Shown here: positions 6,301 through 59,931 of the stretch, one piece after another
Position numbering within the stretch: position 1 is the first letter of the stretch
Layout: each line of letters starts with the position of its first letter
IMG/VR virus record: IMGVR_UViG_3300046779_002065
Coordinates: 64,276-128,275 of that record
From: a virus
DNA length: 64,000 bases
Strand: one strand, 5' to 3'
The notes under the pieces: model-generated
What the model was told of the DNA's origin: nothing
The model's database searches: none
Seen by the model: the letters and a program-made list of their open reading frames with translations, nothing else
Made by a program: the position numbers and the translations under genes

Positions 6301-9300
6301 TTTTACCAGCTGCCGCCTGAGATTTCAAACGCTTGTAGTAATCTACCGCATTTGCAAGACCCAGTGCTTTGTCACCGTCAAATAACTGATTAACCAACAA
6401 TCGGTTAACCCAGTCATTGAAAAAGTAATCTTTTAAGAACTTATCAGTAGTAGTAATTGAGTTCGCTTTAGATACACCGTTCTCCTTGTAGTTTGTATCA
6501 AAGAATTCACTGCTGTATCCTTCTTTTGTCTTGTTGACGATTTTAGCTTTCTCCATGCTCTCCATGAAGAAATCAAACTCATCCTGAGCATACATATCTA
6601 ACTGCTCAAATAAGCTTGACATGGCAGGCAATGCTAATGCTTCTTCAAAAGATTTACCTTCTTTAGCAGCAGCAATCAGCGTCTCACGCATCTGCGTTCT
6701 GGCAGCTACGTTTTCATCACTGATCGATGTGTCTGTTGGATCAATATCGTTTAAGAAGAAGCTGTCCAATTGATGGAACTGGTATGCTCTGAGTTTAGCA
6801 CTTTCAGTATCCACCGTGTTGTCAGACAAAAGAATACCGTTATAATCTTTGTAACGGAGTTTGTTTTCATGACGTGACGCCCACTGATTACCAATACGAC
6901 TGTACTCTTGTTTAATCAGATCACTAAGACGTTTGCTGATTAAGCTGACTTTCTTGGAATTAACTTCCGTCTTTACAGCTGCATTATTGGTGGTGTACTG
7001 CTCATAGCGACCGGTTGTGTGAAACAACGTTCCGGTAGCGTCATTCTGAGACGTAATACGTTTAAAGGTTTTTAATTCTTTACCTCCGCGTTTGTACGAT
7101 TTACGATCTGTAAACAACGCAAGGTTGGAAAGATGAATACCAATCTTGTCAAGATCTGCGGCATCTGTGTTGATCGATCCGGTGTCGTCGATATTTTGAG
7201 AAAGACCACCGAGGTATCCAACTTTTAAATAATCCAGGAAGAGTTCTCCCAATCCATCCTCTGACAGATATGGGTTGTTATCAAACCAGCTTAGGAACTC
7301 AGGACCATATACCTCTAGGACAAACTGACGAAGTCCCTTTGATTGTACGTCCTGCACAACCTGCATGTTTGGAGAGTACAGGGTAAAGCGGTATATCTTG
7401 TTGCCTGTAGTGTTCATGACCACCGGCTGACCAATCGTTGAGTCATAGCGGGTGAGGTACGTCATGGAAGGTAAGAAACTGGCAACGACGCTTTTACGGG
7501 TTTTGTTATCTTTGTTTTCAAACAATGGAACAGACCCTGTGTAGCTAAACATGTACCACATAGCTTTCAGCATGCTGGTAGTCATGTATCCTTTTTCTTT
7601 AAAGATGTCGCTGTTTGCAAGCAACACTGCTCTGGCGTTGCTACCGTCAGGTAAACGATACCCGCTTTCGGTAATCAATGCCGCCAAAGAGAAATGGAAG
7701 AAGTGACGTGGAATACCAAGTCCTGCTTCTGCAGTGATTACATACAAGTCATCGGCAAACTTGTTCACCTTGGCGTCCGAGAACTCACCATTCTCCAGGT
7801 AAAACTCAGAGATGTTTTTACCATCGTCGCTTAACTCTCTGCTTAGAAGCGTTAAGTCATTCTGGATTTTCTGTTTGTCTTCTGCAGAAAGTGCTGTATA
7901 ATTATTGTTGTATCCGTCAATGATACGGTTGAGTGCCTGGAAGTTATCCTGGGACTGCACCATATCCACGGTGTTTAATTCACTCTTTATAGTGATACCA
8001 CTAATTTCAAAACTTCTGCTGGTTTTAACATCCACACGGGTAATCTCACCACTTGCTACATAGAACACGCTGTGAAACTGGTTGAACATTGCTTCAGAAC
8101 GGGTCGGTTTACCATCTACAATTCCGCAGGTGGTATCCAACATCTTCATCATCGCTTTAAGACTCTCTGCCAACTGATACACGGATTCATATTCCACCGG
8201 GTAACGATAGTTCATGCGACTACTCAAGCGACTCATATTAGACAAGTCTTCTTCCAATGTCTTAATCACTTGTCTGATCTGTGGAAGCAAGTCTTTCTTT
8301 CCAACATTTACCGTGATCTTTTTAACAGTGTCAAACAACCTGTCGGCATCTACCGGGCGACGCATGGTAACGCCAAACATGTCTTCCTGTTCATAAACCA
8401 GGAACTGGAAAATCTTACGGAACTCACGGTCTCCTTCCGAAGTACCTGTTTCCAGTAATCCAAGATCCGGATCCTTTGCACCTGATTCTTCTACATCATT
8501 GTTAGCTTTAGCAAACGCCTCTGCTGTATTCTCACCAGTAACCTGGTCTGAAGCAGCAGCCTGTTCTATCGTATCAATAACGTTCAGATTGTTGTACACC
8601 TCCAGGACCAACGCCTTCATCTGGCGGTAACTTTCTTCCGCACTTTTTGTGTAGGTTTCACCCGTCTCGTTTCCAATGTACTTGTTATCATAGTTTGGAT
8701 CACCTGTAAGGTTTGCTACCGGGAATTTCTCCCCAAGTTTCATAGAACCCAACACGTATCTAAAGTCACGGAGTTTGTTTTCATACGTCTCCCTGATCAC
8801 ACGTTCAGCACTTGGATTCTGACTGATAAAGTTCTCAATGTTATAGTATGACACCATGGTCTTTGCAATCTGATCGTACAAATCAGACGTAGTAATTCCA
8901 GCAGATTTACTACGGAGCATCTCATAGACCATCATATTGCGCAACTCCATCATCTCATCAGCGTTCATACTGTTAGGGAAACGAACAATTTTATCGTTTA
9001 GTAATCCCATGGTAGGAACTGTCTTGATCAATGCATACGCACCTTCGACACCAGTGTATTCTTTTACGGTTGCATTCTTGTAATATCCGTTATGAATACG
9101 GTCGAATGTTTTTTCGAGTTCATCCTTGTGCTTGGTAAAGAAGTCAAGCAACGACTGGATAAGGTTAAATAATTTCTGGTACCAGGTTTCTGCTTTGGTT
9201 TTCTTGGTCGCATACTTCTGGAATTTGTCTGCCATGCGTTCCTCCGCCATCAATTCAATGACTTCGGTGTTGCTCATGTGTGCAAGACCACGACGTTGCT

Positions 9301-45624: not shown

Positions 45625-45655
45625 TGGTTGGTTGGTTTATCGCGTATCGCGATTT

Positions 45656-45749: not shown

Positions 45750-47366
45750 TTACAAAGAAGTTCCAGTAACTGGGTTTCTCATAACAATCTTCAACACCTT
45801 CGTAGGGTCTTTCACCCAGATCGCTGGCATTGTTTGCGTCATGAACACTCTGTAACCGTTGAAGTTTCCAGAGCTGTTGAAACCTTGTGTACGTCCCATG
45901 TAGTCCATGGTACCGTTTTGGTAGAACCATTTCAATTCGTTATCCCATTTCAACTTCAACAAGTAGATGTTGTCGTTGGTGTTGTCGGTGATATCGAACA
46001 CGATGAAGTTGTAAGAAGACAATGGGAAACCATCAACGATTGGGTTTTCAATGTCGTTAGTATGAACGTTGTCAAACGCTGGGTTCAATACAAATTTCAC
46101 ATTCGCTAAGAACGGAATAGTGTAAGAAGTGAACGCAAAACCGAAGTTCAAGTCCATTCCTTTACCAGTGATTGCCCCGATGTCTGCAGCCTGTACAACC
46201 AAACCTGCACCTAAAGCTTCTTTCTTGATCGCTTCATTTACCATCTTCATACCAGCCATACCAGTTTGAACAATGATTTGACGCTTTGGATCTGGTCCTT
46301 TGAACTCAACCTTACCATTGTAGAAGTTGAAGATTTCAGAACGGAACAATTCCAATGTGAAAGAACCTTTGTTGTACACACGTTTGAACGCGTTGTCCAA
46401 CTGCTTCCAAAGACCCACTGATAAGCGGATATCATCTGGACCATCTTGCTTAACACGTCCACCTTGTCCCCACATTAAGTAGGTCTCGATGTCTGTAGCA
46501 ATCTTAGTCAAATGAGCTGCTTCCAAGTTGGTTACGAATGAACGAGACAAGTTTCCGTTTTCGTAAGCTTTACGAACGAATTCTTTACCCATCTTCTTAA
46601 CCATGTCGTCGATGCTGGTGATTGAAGGATCAACACTCTTGTCGAAGTTTCTCCAGATCTCTGTTACAGGAACAGTACCATCAGCATTCATTCCACCTTT
46701 CATCATCAACTCAGCACGAGAAGAGATTGAATAGTGTACGTGAGCTTCCGCACCGCCTACGAAGTTGTAGAACTCACGGAAACCTGCAGAGATTTCTCCG
46801 ATGTCAGAGAATTTCTCTCCATATTCACCACGAGCAGAACCTTTACGGAAATACTTAACACCTGGTTTTAAGTAGTTCTTGTCGAAATACTTGGTGTTGT
46901 CGTTGTTAACAATTTGAACTGTGTAGATGAAACCGTCACCAGCTGGAAGAATGTCTTCAGCAGTGATGTACAATTCCACACCATTGTATTTGTCGTAGGT
47001 GATGATATCACCGTGTCCGAAAATACGTTTGTTCATTTTGATTTTGAAAGAAGTACCATCAACACCTGGAGTGCTGTTAGTTTCCACGTCCTCAGTGATG
47101 TACGGAAGATCCTGTACTACAGGAACCTGCCATTTGTACTCACCACGAGCGTTGTCAACCATGATGGTGTTTTTACCACCGAATGATGCCATCTGGTAAA
47201 GAGGCATTTCTACCTTTTGTACCATTGCCCACAAGTCTACCGGACCTAAATCCATAGGTTCGCTTGACTTAAGCATGTTTACTAAGTGGTAGGAGTCCAA
47301 GTGTGACTGCACCTTGTACTGGGTGTCACGCAAGAACAGACCGTTGTTTAATACTGGAGTTGCCAT
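45750..47366 (-). CDS. Major capsid protein
   Basis: 538 aa with strong codon bias. Portal-X-MCP order and the C-terminal IWVKDPTK motif match crAss MCPs. Confidence 0.88.
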   Translation of the reverse strand: MATPVLNNGLFLRDTQYKVQSHLDSYHLVNMLKSSEPMDLGPVDLWAMVQKVEMPLYQMASFGGKNTIMVDNARGEYKWQVPVVQDLPYITEDVETNSTPGVDGTSFKIKMNKRIFGHGDIITYDKYNGVELYITAEDILPAGDGFIYTVQIVNNDNTKYFDKNYLKPGVKYFRKGSARGEYGEKFSDIGEISAGFREFYNFVGGAEAHVHYSISSRAELMMKGGMNADGTVPVTEIWRNFDKSVDPSITSIDDMVKKMGKEFVRKAYENGNLSRSFVTNLEAAHLTKIATDIETYLMWGQGGRVKQDGPDDIRLSVGLWKQLDNAFKRVYNKGSFTLELFRSEIFNFYNGKVEFKGPDPKRQIIVQTGMAGMKMVNEAIKKEALGAGLVVQAADIGAITGKGMDLNFGFAFTSYTIPFLANVKFVLNPAFDNVHTNDIENPIVDGFPLSSYNFIVFDITDNTNDNIYLLKLKWDNELKWFYQNGTMDYMGRTQGFNSSGNFNGYRVFMTQTMPAIWVKDPTKVLKIVMRNPVTGTSL

Positions 47367-48634: not shown

Positions 48635-48765
48635 AATCTTGGTTGGTTTGCGACCGAGGTCTACATTAATAATCTACATATTTTTAAACGTTCGAGAGTT
48701 ATCTGTAGACCTTTATTTGGACAAACCCGTACTATATCGCTATGAAAACCATTTTGTTGATAACA

Positions 48766-48823: not shown

Positions 48824-51550
48824 CTATTCTTTCTTAGTCTTGCTGTCGAATCGGTTCTTGTTTTCACGGGCGACCTGCACCTGTTTGTCTGCTATCTCCT
48901 TGCGGATTTGCAGCTCTTCACGCTTTAACTGATTCTTAGCTGATTCGGAGTTCTGACGATTGACGTTCTCTTCCCGGCGCAGGTTAATATCCTCCTGGTC
49001 TTTACGACGCTTGTCCAGGATATCCAGCGAATCCAGGTAATCATTCTGAGCGTTGTTGTTAAGGTCCTTCATGGCACCAAAACCAGCAGAACGTACTTCT
49101 GCGACATCCAACTCATTCTGACGATCCAGAGCTTTCTGTTCAGCTTCCCACTGAAGCTTCTGTTGCTGACGTTCACTTTCTGCCTGCTGACGCATTTCTT
49201 CCACCTGTTTAGCAGATTCCTGCGCTTGTTGCTGTTGCGCCTGCACCTTGGTTTCAACGTCTTTAAGCACATGTGTAATTTCAGCCATGCTTTCTGCTTT
49301 GATCAAGTTACCCAGATCATAGATCGATGCACCGCTGGTATTGTTACTCATTGCCAGCTGACGAATGTTTTCCATCACCTGACGCGTATTTACTTTCGTA
49401 GTACAGAAAATATTGAAGTCACGCATTAACAGGTCGGTTCCATTCATCTGGAAGTTAACCCGTTCGTCCATGGTGGTCATGTATTGCAGACGAACGCTTG
49501 GACGCTTGCTGTGGTAATACTGCGCCAGATCCGTACGCATCTGATGTACGCGCGGCATGAGGTATTCACAGTGCTGTACAAAGTACATCTCGGTTTGAGA
49601 ATAACTTTGGTTCATTGCCTGTTGCACGCCAGTAGCTGTTTCCTGTGCATTGACTGCACCCATACGTTGCGGAGTGATACCAATGGTTTCAAATGCTTGT
49701 TGCTTAAAGTAGTTTGCCAGCTGGATACGACTCATCAAACGCTGAGACTGCTCCAGGTTAAGTACCTGGTAGTGCTGGAAATTCAGTGCATTCTCTGTAT
49801 TGGTAATCGATGTATCAAGCGGTAACATCTGGAAGTCCTTCATTGCCACGTATGCTTTGGCAAAGTTGTTACGACCCCAGTCCTCTCCCATAGAATGCTT
49901 AGGAAGTGCGTTCTGATCCATCATGATCACCGTACCGAGTTCATCGATCAGGATGTCTGCAATCTGGTTATTGACCATGTTGTAGCCGATCTGGTAGGGT
50001 TTCATCTTGTCGACCATGGAAACACTCTTACTGTTACGATCTGAGAATACAGATCCCTCTACAGGAAGTTTGCAACCGTATAAGGTAAAGTCACCCTTAA
50101 ACTGGAAGGGTAACGGTTTTAAGTTGAGGTAAATAGGTTGCACCCCATTAACGTCTGCAGAACCATAGAAGCTTGGACGGTTAGGTCCGATCTTAATACC
50201 GCTCCACACCTGGTTAATCCAGATCCAGTCAATGTGCTCACCAAAAACCAGTGTCTCTGAATTTTTGTTCTTATTGAGCGTGGTATTGTAAATAGGTTTC
50301 TCTGTGATCTTGTAATCTTCGGTAACTACTTCCTGGATGACCATACCATCTTCCTGCACTTTTGTCAAGTGACCCACCATGCGCTGTGATTTCCAGTACA
50401 CGGTCGTAACTCGTAACATCTGGTAGGTACCATAGTCAAACAAGTCTTCACTTTGTGAGGTGATCTGCGTAATCAAATCGTCTCCCATGTTCAGGAAACT
50501 ATCCGTTACGCTCATGAACTGACGCATTCCCAAAGACGGCATGTTGGTGTTCCACTCGTAGGAGCGCGTAGCGTCATAGAAGGAACCATCATTTTGCTGA
50601 CCCAGGATTGGATAACCAGCTGATTTTACCGGGTAGATGTGTTCGAGTGCCTGGAGTTGTTCATCATCCATCATGTAACCATACTTGTCGATAATATCGC
50701 TCAGGGTGGCGAGTTCTACTTTACCTACCCAGTTACCTTGAGACACATAACGTACATCGGGAGATTTGTGGTAGAACGTTAATACAGGATTCCAAAGTTC
50801 CAGTTCGTAGTCTTCTTCGAGCATACGGAAGTGCCAGAACTCGCGATCTGTCACCAGCATGTCGCGGAACCCGGTAGTTTCCAATTCTTTTAAATAAAAA
50901 CGTTCTTCGTCTACCTTGTGCTGATGGGTTGCCCACTGCTCATACATGGAACGGTAGGTCTTGCTGAAAAACTGCTGGATCTCCGGTAGACTTTTTACCT
51001 GCTGGTCCATCTGCTCCTGGAACTGTGGATCATTTGGATCCGCTCCCTGAGCAATCATATTTTCCATTAACTTCTGCTCCGCCTGTGCAATAAGGTAGTC
51101 CTCAATCATAGCACGTTTCTCTTCCATCATTTCATTGTAGGACAAATCGTCCACAGCACGGTAGAGAATACGGTCAGTGCGTTTTGCAAACTCACCTACC
51201 ATTACGTTGACTACGTTGGGAATAATCGGATAGAACTTTAATTCCAACGCACTTTGATCTTCTTTAGTCAGAATCTCAATGAGTTCAGCTTCTTCATTAT
51301 CGTCACTCACCAGGTAGTCTGTTTTATCAATGAGACCATTGGCAAGTTTGTAGTTCTTCAGCAAGCGGCGTGCATTACGACGCAATTGCTTCAAACCTTG
51401 AAGTTCCAACCAGTCGACGTTCCACGCCGCCCATTCATCATCTTTATCCTTTTGCGGTAAAAACTGAACAGGTTGGGTTATTGTACCCATCTTGTTGTAA
51501 TCTGCTTTTGCACCGTTCTTGAGTTGCAGTGCGTTGTATATTTTAGGCAT
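48824..51550 (-). CDS. Portal protein
   Basis: 908 aa. YPIIPNVVNVMVGE, MKPYQ and IGITPQRMG motifs and a C-terminal coiled-coil barrel. Confidence 0.88.
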   Translation of the reverse strand: MPKIYNALQLKNGAKADYNKMGTITQPVQFLPQKDKDDEWAAWNVDWLELQGLKQLRRNARRLLKNYKLANGLIDKTDYLVSDDNEEAELIEILTKEDQSALELKFYPIIPNVVNVMVGEFAKRTDRILYRAVDDLSYNEMMEEKRAMIEDYLIAQAEQKLMENMIAQGADPNDPQFQEQMDQQVKSLPEIQQFFSKTYRSMYEQWATHQHKVDEERFYLKELETTGFRDMLVTDREFWHFRMLEEDYELELWNPVLTFYHKSPDVRYVSQGNWVGKVELATLSDIIDKYGYMMDDEQLQALEHIYPVKSAGYPILGQQNDGSFYDATRSYEWNTNMPSLGMRQFMSVTDSFLNMGDDLITQITSQSEDLFDYGTYQMLRVTTVYWKSQRMVGHLTKVQEDGMVIQEVVTEDYKITEKPIYNTTLNKNKNSETLVFGEHIDWIWINQVWSGIKIGPNRPSFYGSADVNGVQPIYLNLKPLPFQFKGDFTLYGCKLPVEGSVFSDRNSKSVSMVDKMKPYQIGYNMVNNQIADILIDELGTVIMMDQNALPKHSMGEDWGRNNFAKAYVAMKDFQMLPLDTSITNTENALNFQHYQVLNLEQSQRLMSRIQLANYFKQQAFETIGITPQRMGAVNAQETATGVQQAMNQSYSQTEMYFVQHCEYLMPRVHQMRTDLAQYYHSKRPSVRLQYMTTMDERVNFQMNGTDLLMRDFNIFCTTKVNTRQVMENIRQLAMSNNTSGASIYDLGNLIKAESMAEITHVLKDVETKVQAQQQQAQESAKQVEEMRQQAESERQQQKLQWEAEQKALDRQNELDVAEVRSAGFGAMKDLNNNAQNDYLDSLDILDKRRKDQEDINLRREENVNRQNSESAKNQLKREELQIRKEIADKQVQVARENKNRFDSKTKKE

Positions 51551-51553
51551 CTT

Positions 51554-51934
51554 TTATAATTTCTTTAAACTGTTAGCATCCACATAACCTGATAATCCGC
51601 CAGATAAAACACCTGTATCTGCTAGTAAGCTGATACCGCCAGGCAGTGTACCTGATGAATAACTCAAACCAGATGCTGCTTCATGTCTGCGAATAACTTG
51701 AGTATTGCTAGGAGGAGGGAATGGAGAGCTTGGTGTCTTTAAAAACTCTTCAATCAATCTTTGAACCATGTCTCTAGGTAATGCATCTGGTTGTGCTTCC
51801 GGAACTGGTGGATTGTTGATTAACAACTCCTGCTGCATAATGGACAGCTCGTCACTGGAGATGTGTCCGTTGTTGAACAATCGTCCCAGGATATTAATGA
51901 TGGTTTCTTTTGGAGAGAGGGTTGTCGTTTCCAT
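51554..51934 (-). CDS. Hypothetical protein between terminase and portal
   Basis: 126 aa, TAATG-coupled to the terminase stop. Confidence 0.6.
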   Translation of the reverse strand: METTTLSPKETIINILGRLFNNGHISSDELSIMQQELLINNPPVPEAQPDALPRDMVQRLIEEFLKTPSSPFPPPSNTQVIRRHEAASGLSYSSGTLPGGISLLADTGVLSGGLSGYVDANSLKKL

Positions 51935-54150
51935 TAGCGAAGGTTCTTATACGGATTGCGTTTGACTTTGTATTTCTCGTCGACACCAGGTCTGTATCGC
52001 TCGATGTTACGAAAGGGGGACATATTTAATTTACTCATATTATTTGACATTTGTGCTTTATTAGCATCTTCATATTCTACTTTTTTTGCATTACCTCTAT
52101 TTGACTGCTGCACTTTTGCAAATGCAATCAATGCACAATAAGCAACTAACCTATCGACGTTCATACCTTCACGGTATGCTTGCATCTCTTTGCATATCAT
52201 TAAATCAGGGATTCGTTCAATACCGTAGCGCACTTTTTTAATGTTACCCTCGGTATCAACCTCTTCATCAATCTTTTCACTTAAATATTGAATACCGTAT
52301 TCAAGAAGGTTTGTCTTAAAGATTGTTCCTACGTTACGCCATCCGTAATCCTGGAACACGTTGGTATTGCTACCTAAATCTTTGAGGAATGCAATCTGGT
52401 TTTTAGGAACCAGGTATTTTTGTTTACGTCTGCGAATCATGTGCTGAATAAATCCGGTAACGTTATTCTCGCACACGGTCCATGCATTGTATGCTTCGAT
52501 CAAGAGTTCACAGAGTTCATGGGTATCATTGATGTCATCAAACCTGCCACACCAGGTAGCAACAATCTTGTCCTGTTCAATGATGTGTTCAATCGTTCCA
52601 TCCTGTTTGTGAATGACACGTTCCAATGGATTTTTGTAAATAATCAGTGAACACAGTGAATCACTGGTGGTGGTTTTACCGTCACGCACCGGGTCCATAG
52701 AGGCGTAGTATGTTCCCCAGGGTGCGTCGGGTATCGGACGTTCGTACATCTCGATAGCACCTTCCTTGTTTTCGGTTTTAGGAGAGATCGGAAATTCCCG
52801 GATGGGAAGCTTGCGGGTATTCTTAATGACTACTTTTCCCTGGTCGTTGCGTTCCAGCTCCACGTTTTCGCTGAAATATTCTTTTTCCTCGATGCGTCTA
52901 AGTTGGTTGCTGACAAGATGTTGCGGAAACACACTTTGCTTTCGATACGCAAAAGCTTCTTCAATATTGGTCGGTTTTTGTGAAATACGAAGCTGGTAGT
53001 CACCCGGTTTCATCTTACGTTTCCACTCCTCCCGTTCAGCTTTGATCATGCGCAGAGCGTCTTCTACCTGGGAGTTACCGTAGGCATCGATGCAGGGAAG
53101 CATACTCCACTGCTCCGGGATAAACAACCCGCACATACCGATAGAACCTTTAGCGTCTACCAGGTTGGTTTCTACTGCAAGAATGTCTTTACTGTCTGGT
53201 TGAAGGATTAAATCTTTGAGCGGATCACACTGCTCCAGATCACCCACTGATCCTGCCACGGCAAACATCCCGGTATACACCATACCAGACTTGAGAGCTG
53301 GAAGCAGGTACTCCAGTGTTTCGTTCATCTTGGGAGCAATACCTGCTTCCTCGTGAAAGAAAAACTTACACGGACCACCGACACCATTGGTTGGATCTTT
53401 ATCCAGGGACAGACCAATGAGTACGGATTTGAGACCCACGTCCTTTTTTCGACCACCGGTGTTAACCTCAATCTTTTGTTCCCAGTTTAGTACTTTGTCC
53501 GGGTTACAGGGACGATACCAAGCAGTATGGGTGTTAAGGAAATTTCGGTATTCTTCCAGGAAACGCCAGGTACCTTTTTCGTTGATGTAATCCTTTAGCG
53601 ATCCTGCCATCTTGTTTACAGCACCTTCTTCAAACCAGAAGATGTTGATAATCTTTGCAGCGTGGTAATAGGAAGAAGCAATCTGACGCTTTTTAAGAAT
53701 AGCTACGTGTTTGTAACTCCATTCAGCGAGAGCTTCATAGAGCTGCATGTGGTACTGCGCATCCCGGATATCGGCAAACGTGAACTTACCGACCTCTTTG
53801 TTGTAGATCGGCAGAAAGTTTAACCACATGTAATAATCCCGGTTAAGAAACCAGCTCTGACCTTTGAGTCCCTTTACAATGATTCCTTTGCGGCAACGAT
53901 TTTTCTGTTCGTCCCAGTAGGTCATAAAGTCTTTAGAACGCACCGGTGCAATACAATACACCCCTTCTTTACGAAAGCGTACACCTTCAGCGTTAAATAT
54001 TTTGGATCCTTCGTCAAAATCGTATTGACCAGGTTCCTTCCAGATGCTCCACAGAAACGCTACAAAGTCTGCACGGCTGGCAAACGATGTAGTGCTCCAG
54101 CTTTCCGAGACAGCATCATAGGTAGGGATGTCTTGTATAAATTCACTCAT
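51934..54150 (-). CDS. terL: Terminase large subunit
   Basis: 738 aa. Deviant Walker A (LKKRQIASSY), Walker B (FFHEEAG) and nuclease motifs (ASMDP, ENN, DRL). Confidence 0.9.
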   Translation of the reverse strand: MSEFIQDIPTYDAVSESWSTTSFASRADFVAFLWSIWKEPGQYDFDEGSKIFNAEGVRFRKEGVYCIAPVRSKDFMTYWDEQKNRCRKGIIVKGLKGQSWFLNRDYYMWLNFLPIYNKEVGKFTFADIRDAQYHMQLYEALAEWSYKHVAILKKRQIASSYYHAAKIINIFWFEEGAVNKMAGSLKDYINEKGTWRFLEEYRNFLNTHTAWYRPCNPDKVLNWEQKIEVNTGGRKKDVGLKSVLIGLSLDKDPTNGVGGPCKFFFHEEAGIAPKMNETLEYLLPALKSGMVYTGMFAVAGSVGDLEQCDPLKDLILQPDSKDILAVETNLVDAKGSIGMCGLFIPEQWSMLPCIDAYGNSQVEDALRMIKAEREEWKRKMKPGDYQLRISQKPTNIEEAFAYRKQSVFPQHLVSNQLRRIEEKEYFSENVELERNDQGKVVIKNTRKLPIREFPISPKTENKEGAIEMYERPIPDAPWGTYYASMDPVRDGKTTTSDSLCSLIIYKNPLERVIHKQDGTIEHIIEQDKIVATWCGRFDDINDTHELCELLIEAYNAWTVCENNVTGFIQHMIRRRKQKYLVPKNQIAFLKDLGSNTNVFQDYGWRNVGTIFKTNLLEYGIQYLSEKIDEEVDTEGNIKKVRYGIERIPDLMICKEMQAYREGMNVDRLVAYCALIAFAKVQQSNRGNAKKVEYEDANKAQMSNNMSKLNMSPFRNIERYRPGVDEKYKVKRNPYKNLR

Positions 54151-54605: not shown

Positions 54606-55121
54606 TTACATTTGATCGTAAGAGAGTTGCGTTCCGCCACGGGTGTGACCTTTTTGTTCTTCCTGCAAGTCTTTGTAGGCACCTTTGAACGATGCACGAA
54701 TTGCTTCAAACTTTGCTGCAGCATTGACCAGCGAGTTGATATTACCATCACGACCGTGCTCGATAGGGGTATTTCCCATGTAGGTTGCCAATCGGTCAAG
54801 CATGGTTTTGATTCCCATGTATGCGCGCATGGTAGGGGTCTCATACAATTTTCTGCAGAATGCAAGAGCTTTAATGATCTCCAGATCTTCCAGACTGAAA
54901 TCCGCATCTATTTCTCGCATGATGATTTCTTCTTTATCCTGCTCGGGTAAATCAAAGAATGGATTGATTTCAGGAGACGGACAAGACATGTAAAACAGGT
55001 ATGCGTAGATTTTCATAAACTCATCCGGATAATGCTTCATTATTCCGTGCAGCGTCGGTAAGGTGTAGCAATGTTCCGTTGGAACCACTACACCGTTTTG
55101 TACATCAAAAAGTCTGATCAT
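54606..55121 (-). CDS. Conserved helical protein, possible terminase small subunit
   Basis: 171 aa just upstream of terL, ending in RGG. Function inferred from position. Confidence 0.45.
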   Translation of the reverse strand: MIRLFDVQNGVVVPTEHCYTLPTLHGIMKHYPDEFMKIYAYLFYMSCPSPEINPFFDLPEQDKEEIIMREIDADFSLEDLEIIKALAFCRKLYETPTMRAYMGIKTMLDRLATYMGNTPIEHGRDGNINSLVNAAAKFEAIRASFKGAYKDLQEEQKGHTRGGTQLSYDQM

Positions 55122-55957
55122 TTGCGTTTAGAAAATTTCTGTGGGTTGTCTTGTACCATGTGCATGATCGCAATCACTTCGTCTCTGAGATAAGGCATGT
55201 GGTATTCGATGACATCTTTGACGATCGGTTTGCCGTTCTCATCCTGGAGAGTAATGGGAAATCCGTACATGTCTTTTTGGTCCCGCTCTTCAAAGGTTAC
55301 ATGTCGGATAACCAGATCGCCAAACTCCAGTTTAGGATTGTGTTTGAGGATCATGTACATGTAAATGGAAAGCTGCAGGTTGTAATGATTGTAGTTGCAA
55401 TCGTCCAGGTGAGTTACCGGCGACAGCATTTTCTCGCTGATTCCTTCCCAGTTTTTAAAACTCTGACGTTTGATTTCCTTATTTGTCTTGTAGTCAGTGA
55501 TATAGACTTTTCCTTTGATTACTTCTACCAGGTCACTCTGACCACAAACACCAGCAGACTTTAAGTACACCATGTGTTCAGGATAGATACCATCCTGTAA
55601 TTTTTGTGTTGGTGCCATCTTGCGACCATCTCCGTCGAAGATGGGTGCGATCACGGGTAACTCAACACCTTGCTGAACAATGGTTTTAAAACTTAAGAGT
55701 TCTTCTTCCCGCTGGTTGTGGTAGTAGGTTCCCAGATCACATGCACGATCTGCTTCTGCTTTCCATGCTTTCTGAATGTCTTCTACTGACATTCCATACC
55801 ACTTGCTTTTAGCATTCTTTGCACTTTTGGTAGCAATGTTTTTGCCGTCAAATGGTTTTTTAAAATGAGAGAGAAGCGTCGTTACGCTGATCCATCGTTG
55901 ATCAGACTCCGTTGAAATATAGGAATGGGTTTCAGGTTCAAATATTAATGCGTCCAT
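55118..55957 (-). CDS. PD-(D/E)XK (Cas4/RecB-like) nuclease
   Basis: SVTT, GT..H, GQSD, DYKT and QLSIY motifs. Confidence 0.85.
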   Translation of the reverse strand: MDALIFEPETHSYISTESDQRWISVTTLLSHFKKPFDGKNIATKSAKNAKSKWYGMSVEDIQKAWKAEADRACDLGTYYHNQREEELLSFKTIVQQGVELPVIAPIFDGDGRKMAPTQKLQDGIYPEHMVYLKSAGVCGQSDLVEVIKGKVYITDYKTNKEIKRQSFKNWEGISEKMLSPVTHLDDCNYNHYNLQLSIYMYMILKHNPKLEFGDLVIRHVTFEERDQKDMYGFPITLQDENGKPIVKDVIEYHMPYLRDEVIAIMHMVQDNPQKFSKRK

Positions 55958-55970
55958 AGGGTTGGATTAG

Positions 55971-56041
55971 TTGTCCCGAGAGGATTCGAACCTCTACGCT
56001 CTGAGTCAAAGTCAGATGAACTGCCGTTATTCTACAGGACA
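55971..56041 (-). tRNA. tRNA-Gln(TTG)
   Basis: Acceptor TGTCCTG/CGGGACA, anticodon arm TCTGA-CTTTGAC-TCAGA, T arm AGAGG-TTCGAAT-CCTCT. No encoded CCA. Confidence 0.92.
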
Positions 56042-56044
56042 ATG

Positions 56045-56121
56045 TGGTTGCGGGAGTGGTAATCGAAACCACCTAGTGGAGCTTATGAGACTCCCGAGTG
56101 CACCAGCTCTACTTTCCCGCA
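56045..56121 (-). tRNA. tRNA-Met(CAT)
   Basis: Acceptor TGCGGGA/TCCCGCA plus ACCA, anticodon arm GGAGT-CTCATAA-GCTCC. D arm is atypical. Confidence 0.82.
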
Positions 56122-56153
56122 ATGTATCCCGGATCACTGCTCCGGGAAGGCAG

Positions 56154-56471
56154 TTATTCTTTGGGTTCCATGACAATCTGCGTCTTGGATGCAAGCTTAT
56201 AAAGAGCAATAAACGCATGAGGTGAAAACACCTCCAGCTCACCACCTTTATGTTGCACAATCCAATCACCATGCGTCACGGTCACAATTCCTGTTTTCGT
56301 AGGGATGTCGTACTCGTACTTTTTACCCACTACACGGATCTGATAGTCTGTGTTACAAGCTTCCAGGAAATTGCTTGTGTGTGTAGTATTGTTTCCCGTG
56401 AACTCGTGTGCAGCCACTCGTGTTCTGGACAGTCCACTAGGGACGATTCTACGATACTGGAAATAGAACAT
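56154..56471 (-). CDS. PGDYG-like small phage protein
   Basis: IPTKTG.VTVTHGDWIV..KGGELEVFSPHAFIALY resembles the widespread GDWII..GE.YPC.P..F..TY phage family. Confidence 0.6.
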   Translation of the reverse strand: MFYFQYRRIVPSGLSRTRVAAHEFTGNNTTHTSNFLEACNTDYQIRVVGKKYEYDIPTKTGIVTVTHGDWIVQHKGGELEVFSPHAFIALYKLASKTQIVMEPKE

Positions 56472-56472
56472 G

Positions 56473-56802
56473 TTATTTTACAATTACCCAATCTTCGCTG
56501 AGCATATCTGTTTGAGATGCTAACCATCCCATTAAGATTTTGTCATCAGCCGTTTTAAACAAAATGTAGGGAAGTACATCTGCTGAACCTCCATTGCTTT
56601 CTGCAAACGCTTTTGAATGTTCGTTCCAAAATCCTTCGGCAGGTAATTTTGGTTGACCTTTTCCAAGAGCGATCCACATGTCTTTACCGTTCCAGCCTTG
56701 TCTGGCAACTTTGTGTCCTTGCTTGATCAGACGAATTGCCTGACCAAAGTCAAACTGACCACCGTTTAGAGGTTCTTGATCTGTGTATAGTTCTGTAGTC
56801 AT
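56473..56802 (-). CDS. DUF2829 / Tad2-family anti-defence sponge
   Basis: FGQAIRLIKQGHKVARQGWNGKDMWI...PYI...GWLASQTDMLSEDW. Likely start at 56802. Confidence 0.85.
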   Translation of the reverse strand: MTTELYTDQEPLNGGQFDFGQAIRLIKQGHKVARQGWNGKDMWIALGKGQPKLPAEGFWNEHSKAFAESNGGSADVLPYILFKTADDKILMGWLASQTDMLSEDWVIVK

Positions 56803-56806
56803 AGTC

Positions 56807-57094
56807 TTACCAAATAATGGAGATATCGCGTTCGCCAATCATCAGCTTTACACTATCATCGATAATAACCTTATCGGCGTGTACAAGAATCTGTGGTGTT
56901 ACATACACGTCGTCTCCGGGTTTAACTTTAGTTACATCTTCACCGACAGCAAACACTTCAAGTGATTTTAACTGTGCGATGAATTCTTGCTGTACTCTAG
57001 TTTTTACTTCGTCAGTTAATTCAATAACTGAAGGTTCTGGTGCAGGAGGAATCGTTAACAAGATTCTACTTCCTAATATTTTCATTTCACTCAT
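56807..57094 (-). CDS. groES: GroES-like co-chaperonin
   Basis: LGSRILL...EVFAVGEDVTKVKPGDDV...MIGERDI. Confidence 0.78.
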   Translation of the reverse strand: MSEMKILGSRILLTIPPAPEPSVIELTDEVKTRVQQEFIAQLKSLEVFAVGEDVTKVKPGDDVYVTPQILVHADKVIIDDSVKLMIGERDISIIW

Positions 57095-57097
57095 GGT

Positions 57098-57352
57098 TTA
57101 CTTTTGCCAGGTTGCTGCTTTTACTGCCCACATTTGAGCTGTCTGTGCTTCTGTGATAGCGATGGAACACATGCGCTGTACTTCAGGGTCCCTGGAGCTT
57201 TCGCGAATAAAGTTGATGTGATCAATAGCGGTCGCAAAGTCCTTCTTGATCTCATTGACTGTAGGATGTCCTCCAGGATTGAAAGACAATCCAACCGCCT
57301 TTTCACCGTAAGTCAACTCACGGTTGGTTGTTGGTAATGTTTCTGTTGTCAT
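57098..57352 (-). CDS. Acb2/Tad1-like cyclic-nucleotide sponge
   Basis: 84 aa from ATG 57352. Helical hairpin ending R.CSIAITEAQTAQMWAVKA, with an N-terminal FNP motif. Confidence 0.72.
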   Translation of the reverse strand: MTTETLPTTNRELTYGEKAVGLSFNPGGHPTVNEIKKDFATAIDHINFIRESSRDPEVQRMCSIAITEAQTAQMWAVKAATWQK

Positions 57353-57368
57353 AATGTTGGTTTTATGT

Positions 57369-57443
57369 TGGAGCTTCTTCCTGGAGTCGAACCAGGTTAT
57401 CATGATTACAAGTCATGCGCATCGCCGTCAATGCTTAAGAAGC
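57369..57443 (-). tRNA. tRNA-Thr(TGT)
   Basis: Acceptor GCTTCTT/AAGAAGC plus TCCA, anticodon arm CATGA-CTTGTAA-TCATG, T arm CCTGG-TTCGACT-CCAGG. Confidence 0.95.
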
Positions 57444-57586
57444 GTGTAGGAAGCACTCAAAACTTCCTGTTGGTGGTTTATCTGATAGTATATCAAAAGG
57501 ACATTGACTCCAGATCAGGTTCTATGGTTACTTACCATAGCGGGGATAGGCAGCGCACCACTTTCACCTGTAACGCCGAACGAGTT

Positions 57587-58015
57587 TGGTGGAGATGGGC
57601 GGTATCGAACCGCCGTCCAGATAAAGCAGCAGATATGTACAGTTATTTACATGCTTAGCACTGAATCAAACTTCTCGCGTCCAAATGGTTATGGACCGTG
57701 GTGTTTCATTCTGCACCGTAAAGGGTTGACCGAAGTCAAATTCCACCACCTGGTTTTAGCTATCAAGTGTGAAACCAGGAAAGTCCACTTCGAGCAGGGA
57801 CACCCTGCTCCGCTTGTCATTTTGGATCAGGGATGACTCCCCGTGACTTAGGCTGCCATGTCGTATTCGTTCACGAATTCGATTGCATCTTCAAAAGTCA
57901 TTTCAGATAATTCTACGTTGCCGTTTAATTGTTTAATACGTGATTAAAGAGAACAGTATCATCTCTCTGCATGTGTACATGTCCCCGACAATCCTGTCGA
58001 ATCCATTTCATCCCC
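57587..58015 (-). ncRNA. ssrA: tmRNA (429 nt)
   Basis: 5' GGGGATGAAATGGATTCGAC and 3' GGCGG-TTCGATA-CCGCC-CATCTCCACCA, with a G3:U Ala identity pair. Tag frame 57922-57848 encodes GNVELSEMTFEDAIEFVNEYDMAA*. Confidence 0.93.
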
Positions 58016-58041
58016 ATAATTCAAAGAACGTGTTGGTTGGT

Positions 58042-58356
58042 TTAATCTGTCAACCCCAGGTTTTTGTTAATCATGTCCTCTTCTTCCTGGCTGACTTCTG
58101 CCTTCCATTTTCCAACAGGACATTCACTTGCAAGTGATCTAGTTTTCCAGCCGAGTTTGCAACCACACTTAGCGCAGCAGGGTTGTGTTCCGGGAACCAG
58201 GCAGTTACCGCCTTTGGTATCCAGGTGCTCACACCCTTCACACACGTTCATGCGTGCTTCAGCAATGATTTCTACATCCTGACGACTGAAGATGCTGTTC
58301 TTGATTCCCTCAAGAATGTTACCTTTCTCTTTCCAGATAGTGATTAGTGATTTCAT
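58042..58356 (-). CDS. Cys-rich metal-binding protein
   Basis: R..VCEGC...C...CCAKCGC...KTR.....CPVGKW. Confidence 0.7.
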   Translation of the reverse strand: MKSLITIWKEKGNILEGIKNSIFSRQDVEIIAEARMNVCEGCEHLDTKGGNCLVPGTQPCCAKCGCKLGWKTRSLASECPVGKWKAEVSQEEEDMINKNLGLTD

Positions 58357-59101: not shown

Positions 59102-59137
59102 CGGTGTTGGTTTATGGGTCCTGTGTTGGTTTTTCTA

Positions 59138-59541: not shown

Positions 59542-59931
59542 ATGGAAAAGGTAGACCAATTACTATTCGTACCTGCTGCAAGTGGGACGATTCTGGAGAG
59601 CCTGCACGGACACTGTCCAAAGTGCGGTGATAACTTACAAGGTCCTGATGTAAAGACTTATTTTATTGAGGACTTGATTAACAGAAAATATGAGGGGGAT
59701 GTGCATGCAGAAGCAGAGAGACTTGCCGCATTATACGGCTGGACAAAAGAAGCTCCGGTACATTTTAGCAACATTATAGGGATTGCCCTGCCGGGTAGTC
59801 CCGATGATTTTATACTACACCAGTGTCCAACTTGCGAGACGACCTGGGATAAATTCACCAAACGCGAAGGAACCTATGAAATTCCTGGTCCCGAAGTACC
59901 TAAAATATCTACAGAAGATGTCCAAGAATAA
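59542..59931 (+). CDS. Zinc-ribbon protein
   Basis: CPKC...CPTC. Likely start MEKVDQ at 59542. Confidence 0.65.
   Translation: MEKVDQLLFVPAASGTILESLHGHCPKCGDNLQGPDVKTYFIEDLINRKYEGDVHAEAERLAALYGWTKEAPVHFSNIIGIALPGSPDDFILHQCPTCETTWDKFTKREGTYEIPGPEVPKISTEDVQE

Follow-up and report, generated by a model that had tools for sequence, protein, structure and literature searches.

The locus described here raises the question of whether a group of small genes, tightly packed ahead of the virion genes of a phage, works as a single unit against the defences of the host or is a set of separable pieces of cargo gathered at one place. It lies in a stretch of 64,000 nucleotides (the window; positions 64,276 to 128,275 of IMG/VR record IMGVR_UViG_3300046779_002065), the second half of a complete genome of 128,275 bp with terminal repeats that, judging from its sequence, belongs to an uncultured crAss-like phage. 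Eight elements follow one another within about 2 kb, all on the minus strand and read here 5' to 3' on that strand: a transfer-messenger RNA (tmRNA) gene, a tRNA-Thr gene, four open reading frames (ORFs) that we call Acb2-like, GroES-like, Tad2-like and PGDYG-related, a gene for a tRNA(CAU) and a tRNA-Gln gene (Table 1). These elements, with their order and coordinates, had been proposed from the letters and ORFs alone (hereafter the sequence-only reading) and were recovered with ARAGORN, Rfam, ORF analysis and Pfam, as were the two families of signal sponges, both curated models (PF11195 and PF24729) being matched. The explanation that we favour, and that we regard as reasonably probable, is that of a cargo hot spot in a crAss-like phage with separable modules, one made up of candidate signal sponges and another that would serve the upkeep of translation.

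ARAGORN finds only four tRNA and tmRNA genes in the whole genome, all of them in the cluster, and six-frame searches of the genome gave a single match to PF11195 and a single match to PF24729, both again in the cluster, so that the grouping is no chance scatter of such genes. The four ORFs are separated by spacers of only 1-4 nt, which suggests one transcription unit; the ATG of the Tad2-like ORF is located four bases past the preceding stop codon, and a longer frame with a TTG start would overlap the preceding gene.

The behaviour of the cluster in relatives was followed in 72 viral loci that were retrieved with the terminase protein and onto which twelve window proteins and the tRNA and tmRNA genes were mapped. 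The conserved backbone of these loci comprises ORF128, an HU-like protein, the Cys-rich protein of 104 residues, the exonuclease, ORF171, the terminase and the portal protein, the cluster being inserted between the Cys-rich and exonuclease genes. The gap between these two border genes was estimated in the 39 loci that carry both of them: it amounts to 82 nt or less, that is, to an empty slot, in 21 loci, to 238-593 nt in another 16, and to more than 1.2 kb in two (L001 and L060). The seven distinct small ORFs that were scanned in the 238-593-nt class gave no Pfam family. L001, whose terminase is 86% identical to that of the window, carries the tmRNA, tRNA-Thr, Acb2-like, GroES-like, Tad2-like, PGDYG-like and tRNA-Met genes and lacks only tRNA-Gln; L060 (terminase 79%) has the tmRNA, GroES-like, PGDYG-like, tRNA-Met and tRNA-Gln genes, without either sponge and without tRNA-Thr. 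In L002, L003, L005 and L062 (the L002 group), Acb2-like, GroES-like and tRNA-Met genes are found upstream of ORF128, with no tmRNA or Tad2 gene. A metagenome contig of 1.5 kb (L194) carries the Cys-rich protein, tmRNA, tRNA-Thr, Acb2-like and GroES-like genes, and a much more distant lineage (L181 and L182) has an Acb2-like gene (34%), a GroES-like gene (40%), a small ORF and a tmRNA upstream of the same backbone. Public sequencing runs gave two independent records of parts of the cluster, namely a 1479-nt contig of run X3 that spans 56442-57917 (22 differences, 3 gaps), and the segment 56530-56910, which is present in run X4 with zero differences. Relatives carry the modules apart (RNA genes without sponges in L060, an Acb2-like gene without tmRNA or Tad2 in the L002 group), and we read the slot as a hot spot for cargo of a modular kind. 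The single island of the sequence-only reading is real as a grouping; the wider interpretation attached to it is plausible, although these split forms partly speak against it. The sponge genes are the variable part of the cargo, which is how accessory counter-defence genes would be expected to behave, and in L060 they are missing where the RNA genes and the GroES-like gene have been retained.

Nine distinct contexts of the GroES-like gene could be compared. The Acb2-like gene is located directly upstream of it in four of them (window/L001/L194, the L002 group, L181/L182 and L183/L184), an Acb2-like neighbour is marginal in L180, and none is present in the remaining four (L060, L179, L187 and L188), in three of which (L179, L187 and L188) the GroES-like gene is found beside replication-type genes. 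This is suggestive of a linkage between the two genes that is non-obligatory and may reflect shared descent. An obligate cassette of PGDYG-like, Acb2-like and GroES-like genes was considered and rejected, given those four contexts with no Acb2-like neighbour and the merely marginal one in L180.

Table 1. Features of the cluster and of the genes that border it, in window coordinates.
Feature	Position	Strand	Basis
tmRNA gene, one-piece, encoded CCA end	57587..58015	-	ARAGORN; Rfam RF00023
tmRNA tag reading frame, 24 codons + stop, GNVELSEMTFEDAIEFVNEYDMAA*	57848..57922	-	ARAGORN
tRNA-Thr(UGU), encoded CCA	57369..57443	-	ARAGORN; Rfam 52.5 bits
84-residue Acb2/Tad1-hairpin family protein, candidate signal sponge	57098..57352	-	Pfam PF24729
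95-residue protein, probably GroES-fold	56807..57094	-	indirect profile/structure signs
109-residue Tad2/DUF2829 protein, probable gcADPR sponge	56473..56802 (ATG at 56802)	-	Pfam PF11195
105-residue PGDYG-related protein	56154..56471	-	intermediate homologues
Conserved hairpin CCCGGA-GCAGTGA-UCCGGG between 105-residue ORF and tRNA(CAU)	56128..56146	-	folding; L060/L001 comparison
Atypical tRNA(CAU), a low-confidence call; Met, or Ile2 in case of modification	56045..56121	-	ARAGORN only
tRNA-Gln(UUG)	55970..56041	-	ARAGORN; Rfam 60.7 bits
Core gene, upstream border of slot: 104-residue Cys-rich protein	58042..58356	-	adjoins exonuclease gene in 39 related loci
Core gene, downstream border of slot: PD-(D/E)XK-type exonuclease	55118..55957	-	PHROG 298 exonuclease 1.4e-25; Pfam PDDEXK_1 0.002; kept in relatives

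With respect to its setting, the cluster is located 1.4-3.5 kb into a minus-strand block, to which most genes from about 59456 down to the start of the window belong, and 1.8 kb upstream of the terminase gene. Downstream of the cluster this block encodes the large terminase (51934-54150(-)) and the portal protein (48824-51550(-)), both identified with PHROGs, the capsid protein (the 538-residue product of 45750-47366(-), which matches Pfam Crass_capsid at 1.6e-34), and tail and giant virion proteins, with giant ORFs of 1634, 1802 and 4019 residues; a plus-strand block begins near 59800 and runs on around the genome ends. A position ahead of the late genes, as described in the sequence-only reading, is thus borne out, since the terminase, portal and capsid genes all follow downstream of the cluster on its own strand. 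The border exonuclease shows in addition a weak match to Cas4 (TIGR00372, E 0.0066), far under the cut-off.

Such a position would be expected if the whole cluster were, along the lines of the sequence-only reading, one co-ordinated counter-defence programme whose expression immediately precedes that of the immunity-triggering late genes, and in which the sponges would mop up the signals of Thoeris and of the cyclic oligonucleotide-based antiphage signalling system (CBASS), the tRNAs would replace those cut by anticodon nucleases, and the tmRNA would free ribosomes stalled by RNA-cutting effectors. The concentration of every tRNA and tmRNA gene and of both sponge-family genes of the genome within about 2 kb points the same way, as does the recurrence, at another site, of a tmRNA beside the Acb2-like/GroES-like pair in the deeply diverged L181 and L182. 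However, the modules occur apart in L060 and in the L002 group, the GroES-like gene resides also next to replication-type genes without an Acb2-like neighbour, and nothing in our analysis points to an anticodon nuclease with Thr, Gln or Met tRNAs as its targets. We consider a programme of this kind to be unlikely. A further proposal takes the linkage of the tmRNA with the Acb2-like/GroES-like pair (sometimes with a PGDYG-related gene), which is seen at two genome sites and in a pair of crAss-like lineages with deep divergence, as itself a joint counter-defence programme, in which the tmRNA, with its unusually long acidic tag, would rescue ribosomes stalled by RNA-cutting effectors while the sponges would remove the signals that activate those effectors. 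On this proposal, the GroES-fold protein would be no chaperonin partner and the PGDYG-related protein no bystander, both being novel anti-defence factors instead. To this we would give little credence at present, and the cargo hot spot with separable modules is the reading followed below, module by module.

The Tad2-like protein matches PF11195 with an E value of 6.1e-24 (84.8 bits, against a cut-off of 25), the same single match that was obtained in the six-frame search. The Protein Data Bank (PDB) holds seven distinct solved sequences that match it, namely AcrIIA7 (4e-18), HgmTad2 (8.8e-18), SptTad2 (3.3e-16), two for SPO1 Tad2 (4.3e-13 and 4.9e-13), ModTad2 (8.8e-12) and another Tad2 (9.4e-12). 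Residue lists for HgmTad2, taken from the corresponding paper (10.1101/2023.11.15.567273), were mapped onto the PDB alignment, the numbering of the PDB chain being one ahead of that of the paper and the +1 offset fitting all 20 named residues. The contacts to glyco-cyclic ADP-ribose (gcADPR) given in those lists are W21, N22, G23, M76, A78, T82, V84, W87, L88, S90, T92 and D93 (10.1101/2023.11.15.567273), and eight of the twelve are identical in the window protein (W21, N22, G23, W87, L88, S90, T92 and D93, in HgmTad2 numbering), the changes being M76 to F, A78 to T, T82 to K and V84 to L. All five residues whose mutation lowered gcADPR binding are retained. The cyclic-dinucleotide pocket of the long-insertion subgroup is not retained: none of its four mutated residues and only one of its nine listed contacts is identical, with R31 changed to K, F70 to V and N85 to M, and K46/S47 falling inside a deletion.

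Because the gcADPR pocket is retained, capture of a gcADPR-type (Thoeris) signal is favoured, and the protein is most likely, as far as its residues predict, a gcADPR sponge that lacks the site for cGG/cGAMP. It would act as an oligomer that soaks up the gcADPR-type signals made by the Toll/interleukin-1 receptor (TIR) proteins of Thoeris. Compared with HgmTad2 (that is, AcrIIA7) and SptTad2 (PDB 8KBI-8KBM and 8WJD), it is likewise a PF11195 member that matches the whole domain and has an insertion between the conserved halves, but this insertion, which builds the cyclic-dinucleotide pocket, is of about 30 residues versus 41 in HgmTad2, and, unlike in both solved proteins, a 17-residue N-terminal extension precedes the matched domain (in the numbering of the 109-residue protein). 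According to a study of these sponges, the ligands that members of the Tad2 family are able to bind also include His-ADPR, cUMP/cCMP or N7-cADPR, Acb2 homologues vary in specificity between CBASS and Thoeris signals, and specificity differs between members in both sponge families (10.1101/2025.08.24.671296); since it does, we leave broad the range of ligands that either sponge protein might bind.

The Acb2-like protein matches PF24729 (Acb2_Tad1_hairpin) at an E value of 2e-10 (41.1 bits against a cut-off of 27; 40.8 bits in the six-frame search). A word-index search gave 2547 homologues at E <= 0.01, and the best 120 of those 2547 all carry PF24729. Homologues in cultured phages amount to 89 records, every one annotated as "hypothetical protein" and 78 of them from Flavobacterium phages. 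An AlphaFold2 model based on a 72-sequence alignment reached a predicted local distance difference test (pLDDT) score of 92 and has a short helix (residues 15-20) and two long ones (30-52 and 56-81). As the two long helices of the model are antiparallel, the predicted fold fits the description of the Acb2 protomer in the same study, which is of two long antiparallel helices (10.1101/2025.08.24.671296). Compared with Acb2 sponges (T4 Vs.4, PDB 7UQ2; PaMx33 Acb2), it is alike in its size of about 85 residues and in those two helices, and a C-terminal MWA..A motif is common to it and Vs.4; unlike Vs.4, it has a strongly conserved N-terminal segment, GEKAVGL.FNPGG, that does not align to Vs.4. In hhalign, the probability was 36% against Vs.4 alone, and 75% (E 2.5e-5, 50 columns) against an alignment of 38 Vs.4 sequences from related viral contigs. 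The Big Fantastic Virus Database (BFVD) contains two significant structural matches (E 3.5e-4 and 8.5e-4, TM scores of 0.76 and 0.69), which are not independent evidence because they have been named from PF24729 itself. We thus take the protein as a Pfam family member and candidate sponge, which would sequester a cyclic-nucleotide signal or one derived from ADP-ribose (ADPR).

Several results weigh against the sponge reading. The model of the Acb2-like protein found no PDB structure with Foldseek at E < 1, the best match being at 1.3, and T4 Vs.4 appeared only at rank 22 (E 4, TM score 0.38); the family profile reached Vs.4 in PDB at E 0.088, so that any relation to this tested Acb2 would be a remote one. 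Searches with the single sequence and with the 72-sequence profile both failed to recover a solved Tad1 chain at E <= 10. The Tad1/Acb2 label of the sequence-only reading holds at the level of the Pfam family, with no more than a remote resemblance to tested Acb2 proteins. As for the Tad2-like protein, its closest solved relative is AcrIIA7, which was first described as an anti-CRISPR protein. The small proteins might be no sponges at all, the DUF2829 and hairpin proteins being instead anti-CRISPR, structural or regulatory, and the Acb2-like, GroES-like and PGDYG-like proteins perhaps forming one multi-protein unit. In addition to the AcrIIA7 name of that best match, the nondescript nature of a helical hairpin as a fold would agree with this, and so would the direct succession of Acb2-like and GroES-like genes in the four contexts listed above (plus the marginal one) and the PGDYG-related N-terminal domain (17.8 bits) that precedes this pair in L183. 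On the other hand, retention of all five gcADPR-pocket residues whose mutation lowered binding counts against such a role, the anti-CRISPR activity of AcrIIA7 was not reproduced according to a later paper (10.1101/2023.11.15.567273), and a unit of the kind proposed is at odds with the four contexts in which the GroES-like gene has no Acb2-like neighbour. We judge a non-sponge role for these proteins to be decidedly improbable, and continue to regard the two as candidate sponges within a modular cargo slot.

The GroES label given to the 95-residue protein in the sequence-only reading fared less well in direct searches. Pfam Cpn10 (PF00166) gave no match at E <= 1 for the protein and none at E <= 10 in the six-frame genome search, and AlphaFold2, run with an alignment of 14 close homologues, returned a poor model (pLDDT 42); both results count against a co-chaperonin. 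The sole Pfam match of the protein is ADH_N "GroES-like", at an E value of 0.05, and no match was found in a single-sequence search of PDB or in a tblastn search of 50,697 phage records. What remains of the label comes from sub-threshold profile matches and from look-ups based on a language model and on structure. In a diverse alignment of 15 sequences, 12 matched ADH_N "GroES-like" at E <= 1 (best 0.0016) and one matched Cpn10 (E 0.0099), and the family profile aligned in PDB to GroES chains over nearly the full length, at E 0.28-0.68. An Atlas look-up by features scored 0.96 to viral clusters in which 14-20% of the members carry Cpn10, and a look-up by structure, with the Atlas's own model, gave TM scores of 0.67-0.69 against a viral cluster with Cpn10 on 100% of its members. 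These indirect signs are consistent with one another. The protein resembles GroES and phage co-chaperonins in its length of about 95 residues and in that weak full-length alignment, and it has the AVG...V..GD..V motif typical of GroES-fold barrels; unlike GroES, its mobile-loop segment is longer and is predicted, in the poor model, to be helical. The protein thus probably has a GroES fold, a weak call made at the level of the fold. A phage co-chaperonin is known in T4, gp31, and it is possible that the GroES-fold-like protein would serve as a co-chaperonin for the host GroEL. A predicted complex of the Acb2-like and GroES-like proteins scored 0.00 against a mark of 0.32, which is evidence neither way.

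Among the genomes of genome_contigs (one each for 185,579 species), the only homologues of the GroES-like protein are in L187 and L188, which belong to one metagenome-assembled genome labelled Sphingomonadaceae. Both contigs are short and encode polymerases and methyltransferases that resemble those of phages; they probably represent phage sequence that ended up in a bacterial bin. Sphingomonadaceae was not accepted as the host, an assignment that would rest on two short contigs of one metagenome-assembled genome.

The 105-residue protein had been called PGDYG-like, and it did not match Pfam PGDYG (PF14083) directly at E <= 1, but the label is sustained through intermediates. PHROG 419 and PHROG 1810 are matched at about 1e-8, the nearest named Atlas cluster is PGDYG (score 0.80, the family being present on 35% of the members), and an exhaustive search of representatives gave five relatives, two of them PGDYG by Pfam. 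One of these proteins, P0016 (3743 residues), contains 21 PGDYG stretches (5.2e-94), and its match to the ORF spans residues 56-98 at E 3.1e-21; the other, P0018, matches it at 3e-4 and is PGDYG by Pfam at 1.4e-8, the HGDWIV of the window protein corresponding to PGDWII in P0018. As P0016 and P0018 are PGDYG members, the label holds by transitive homology. P0016 further shows Annexin matches and, at its C-terminus, similarity to AAA_33 and to kinase models of the Zeta-toxin type. A full-text literature search for "PGDYG" found no paper. In L183 (467-1087), a protein of 206 residues combines a PGDYG-related N-terminal domain (17.8 bits with the hidden Markov model of the family) with a WDGH domain (PF25311, 6.3e-33), and its gene is located directly upstream of Acb2-like and GroES-like genes.

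In the RNA module, the tmRNA scores 90.7 bits with Rfam RF00023 (cut-off 47, E 6e-34), and the match spans the whole model (positions 1-374 of 374). Its tRNA-like domain is canonical: GGGGAUG pairs with CAUCUCC, a G3:U pair is present, and the terminal ACCA is encoded in the gene. The tag, GNVELSEMTFEDAIEFVNEYDMAA, comprises 24 codons, and its length and frame are kept in all four related tmRNAs (those of the window, L001, L060 and L194), in which 16 of the 24 codons are invariant, the final six residues are EY[D/E]MAA, both tag ends are fixed, and the variable codons include three with synonymous changes. The pseudoknot region differs by large indels, the tRNA-like ends and the tag being far better kept. 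No match to SmpB (PF01668) was found in the phage at E <= 1, so that the tmRNA, if active, would have to use the SmpB of the host. In the RNA-library run X10, a contig of 149 nt reproduces 57715-57863 exactly and one of 151 nt matches 57852-58002 with a single difference (99-100% identity), which places the tmRNA sequence in a metatranscriptome library and falls short of proving its transcription. For the protein genes of the stretch, that run gave no near-identical contig, a result that does not demonstrate their absence.

Phage tmRNAs as such are already known, and according to Al-Shayeb et al. (2020) huge phages carry tmRNAs and SmpB. Like the tmRNAs of huge phages and of IMG/VR contigs, that of the window is phage-borne, adjoins tRNA genes and has identical tRNA-like ends: its 28-nt 3' end is common to 58 viral contigs, in 56 of which ARAGORN finds a tmRNA, and its 22-nt 5' end to 12 metagenome contigs (the contigs with identical ends are L120-L177, viral, and L189-L200, metagenome, and some of them adjoin large tRNA arrays). 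It differs in being a one-piece tmRNA, whereas all 56 with the same 3' end are permuted, and in its tag of 24 residues with a GN start and an MAA end, versus mostly AND...LAA tags of 10-13 residues elsewhere; moreover, the phage, at 128 kb, is not a huge phage and lacks a match to SmpB. Several one-piece marine phage tmRNAs with matching tRNA-like ends carry the tag ANDSNYSELALAA, and the one-piece tmRNA of L181 (1867-2291; also in L182), which is very divergent (76.8 bits with Rfam), carries the tag DDTQEEASYEVELAVAA and is located downstream of the Acb2-like/GroES-like pair and upstream of the conserved backbone, in a second crAss-like lineage. The tmRNAs with matching tRNA-like ends hint at a phage-borne tmRNA lineage with exchangeable tags. 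Among the papers listed by a literature search, none was evidently devoted to the tmRNA of a crAss-like phage, and the word "tmRNA" does not occur in Yutin et al. (2021).

Alternatively, the tmRNA could have no role of its own, being a gene captured from a host or the remnant of an attachment site, and the tRNAs could serve only to match codon usage. The frequency of tmRNAs in phages (the 56 of 58 contigs mentioned, together with those reported for huge phages) agrees with such passive carriage. Against it stand the full length of the gene, the preservation of the tRNA-like ends and of the tag frame in four phages despite large indels in the pseudoknot region, and the codon usage of the genome, which shows no special need for these tRNAs; this alternative appears very improbable. 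In the modular cargo that we favour, the RNA genes would keep translation going, the tmRNA acting with its own long tag through the host SmpB, alongside tRNA-Thr(UGU), tRNA-Gln(UUG) and the odd tRNA(CAU). The same codon usage also speaks against that function: the share of ACA among Thr codons is 26-28% and that of CAA among Gln codons 48-56%, with similar values in both strand blocks and no indication of special demand.

Two of the three tRNAs are regular. The minimum-energy fold of tRNA-Thr(UGU) is a cloverleaf (z -3.56), and the copy of tRNA-Gln(UUG) in L060 differs from that of the window by one base. The tRNA-Met of the sequence-only reading was found by ARAGORN as a CAU gene, but it stays under the Rfam tRNA threshold and folds atypically: its best clan match is to tRNA-Sec (26.1 bits, E 0.026), the D arm is weak, with two to three pairs in the ARAGORN drawing, and the minimum-energy fold is no cloverleaf. 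At the same place, L001 (7113-7184) and L060 (7034-7105) have a different, canonical tRNA(CAU), with 65.3 and 57.3 bits. The hairpin upstream and the tRNA-Gln downstream are nearly identical to those of L060 in spite of the different tRNA(CAU), and, because of this odd gene between such flanks, the arrangement has the look of a swapped tRNA cassette. The hairpin (-12.6 kcal/mol, z -2.46) is identical in L060 (about 7010-7028), and its counterpart in L001 (about 7077-7095), CCCACA-GCAGTGA-TGTGGG, shows two compensatory pair changes with the GCAGTGA loop unchanged; the element might serve in processing or act as a promoter or terminator. Two relatives have arrays of 16-17 tRNA genes, L010 (5-2836) and L011 (567-3534), about 2 kb upstream of ORF128, at the site where the L002 group keeps its Acb2-like, GroES-like and tRNA-Met genes.

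Signals that might drive or bound the cluster were also looked for. A scan for sigma-70 promoters and terminators gave counts close to the shuffled expectation and allowed no promoter or terminator to be placed, which does not favour the proposed reading, Bacteroidota-type signals being outside the scope of the tool; the same scan gave no coding-strand terminator within the cluster. A repeat search of the region returned no flanking direct repeats, only short, chance-like pairs; blastn of the region against the 50,697 phage records gave only two matches of 60-70 nt, and none of eight proteins of the region was above the cut-off in an NCBIfam scan. Copies of the box AAACCAAC (57356-57363, 58036-58043, 59106-59113, 48642-48649 and 45631-45638, all on the minus strand) occur 3-8 bases ahead of several start codons, that of the Acb2-like gene included, as well as directly behind the stop codon of the Cys-rich gene, where the copy precedes the tmRNA. 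The window contains 10 matches in total versus 4.27 expected, a number reached by 2 of 100 shuffles. By this placement, the Acb2-like gene shares a leader with the genes that flank the capsid gene.

Every part of the cluster is thus of a known kind, and it is the grouping that is unusual. What is new is its membership of a crAss-like phage, the pattern of the Tad2 pocket, the long conserved tag of the tmRNA and the recurrent neighbourhood; a literature search that joined the terms crAss-like, anti-defense and Tad2 found no paper linking them in the portions of text it covered. The sponge proteins tested so far come mostly from phages of Bacillus, Escherichia and Pseudomonas, and the neighbouring Tad2-type and Acb2-type genes provide two candidates for inexpensive ligand screening from a poorly studied order of phages, the Tad2 copy predicting binding of gcADPR without binding of cyclic dinucleotides. 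The natural variants with and without sponges (L001 and the window as opposed to L060) bear on the dispensability of the sponge genes, and the tmRNA offers a testable case of a virus that would bring its own ribosome-rescue RNA and rely for it on the SmpB of the host. Current views are not overturned by these findings, which extend known kinds of element to a new group of phages.

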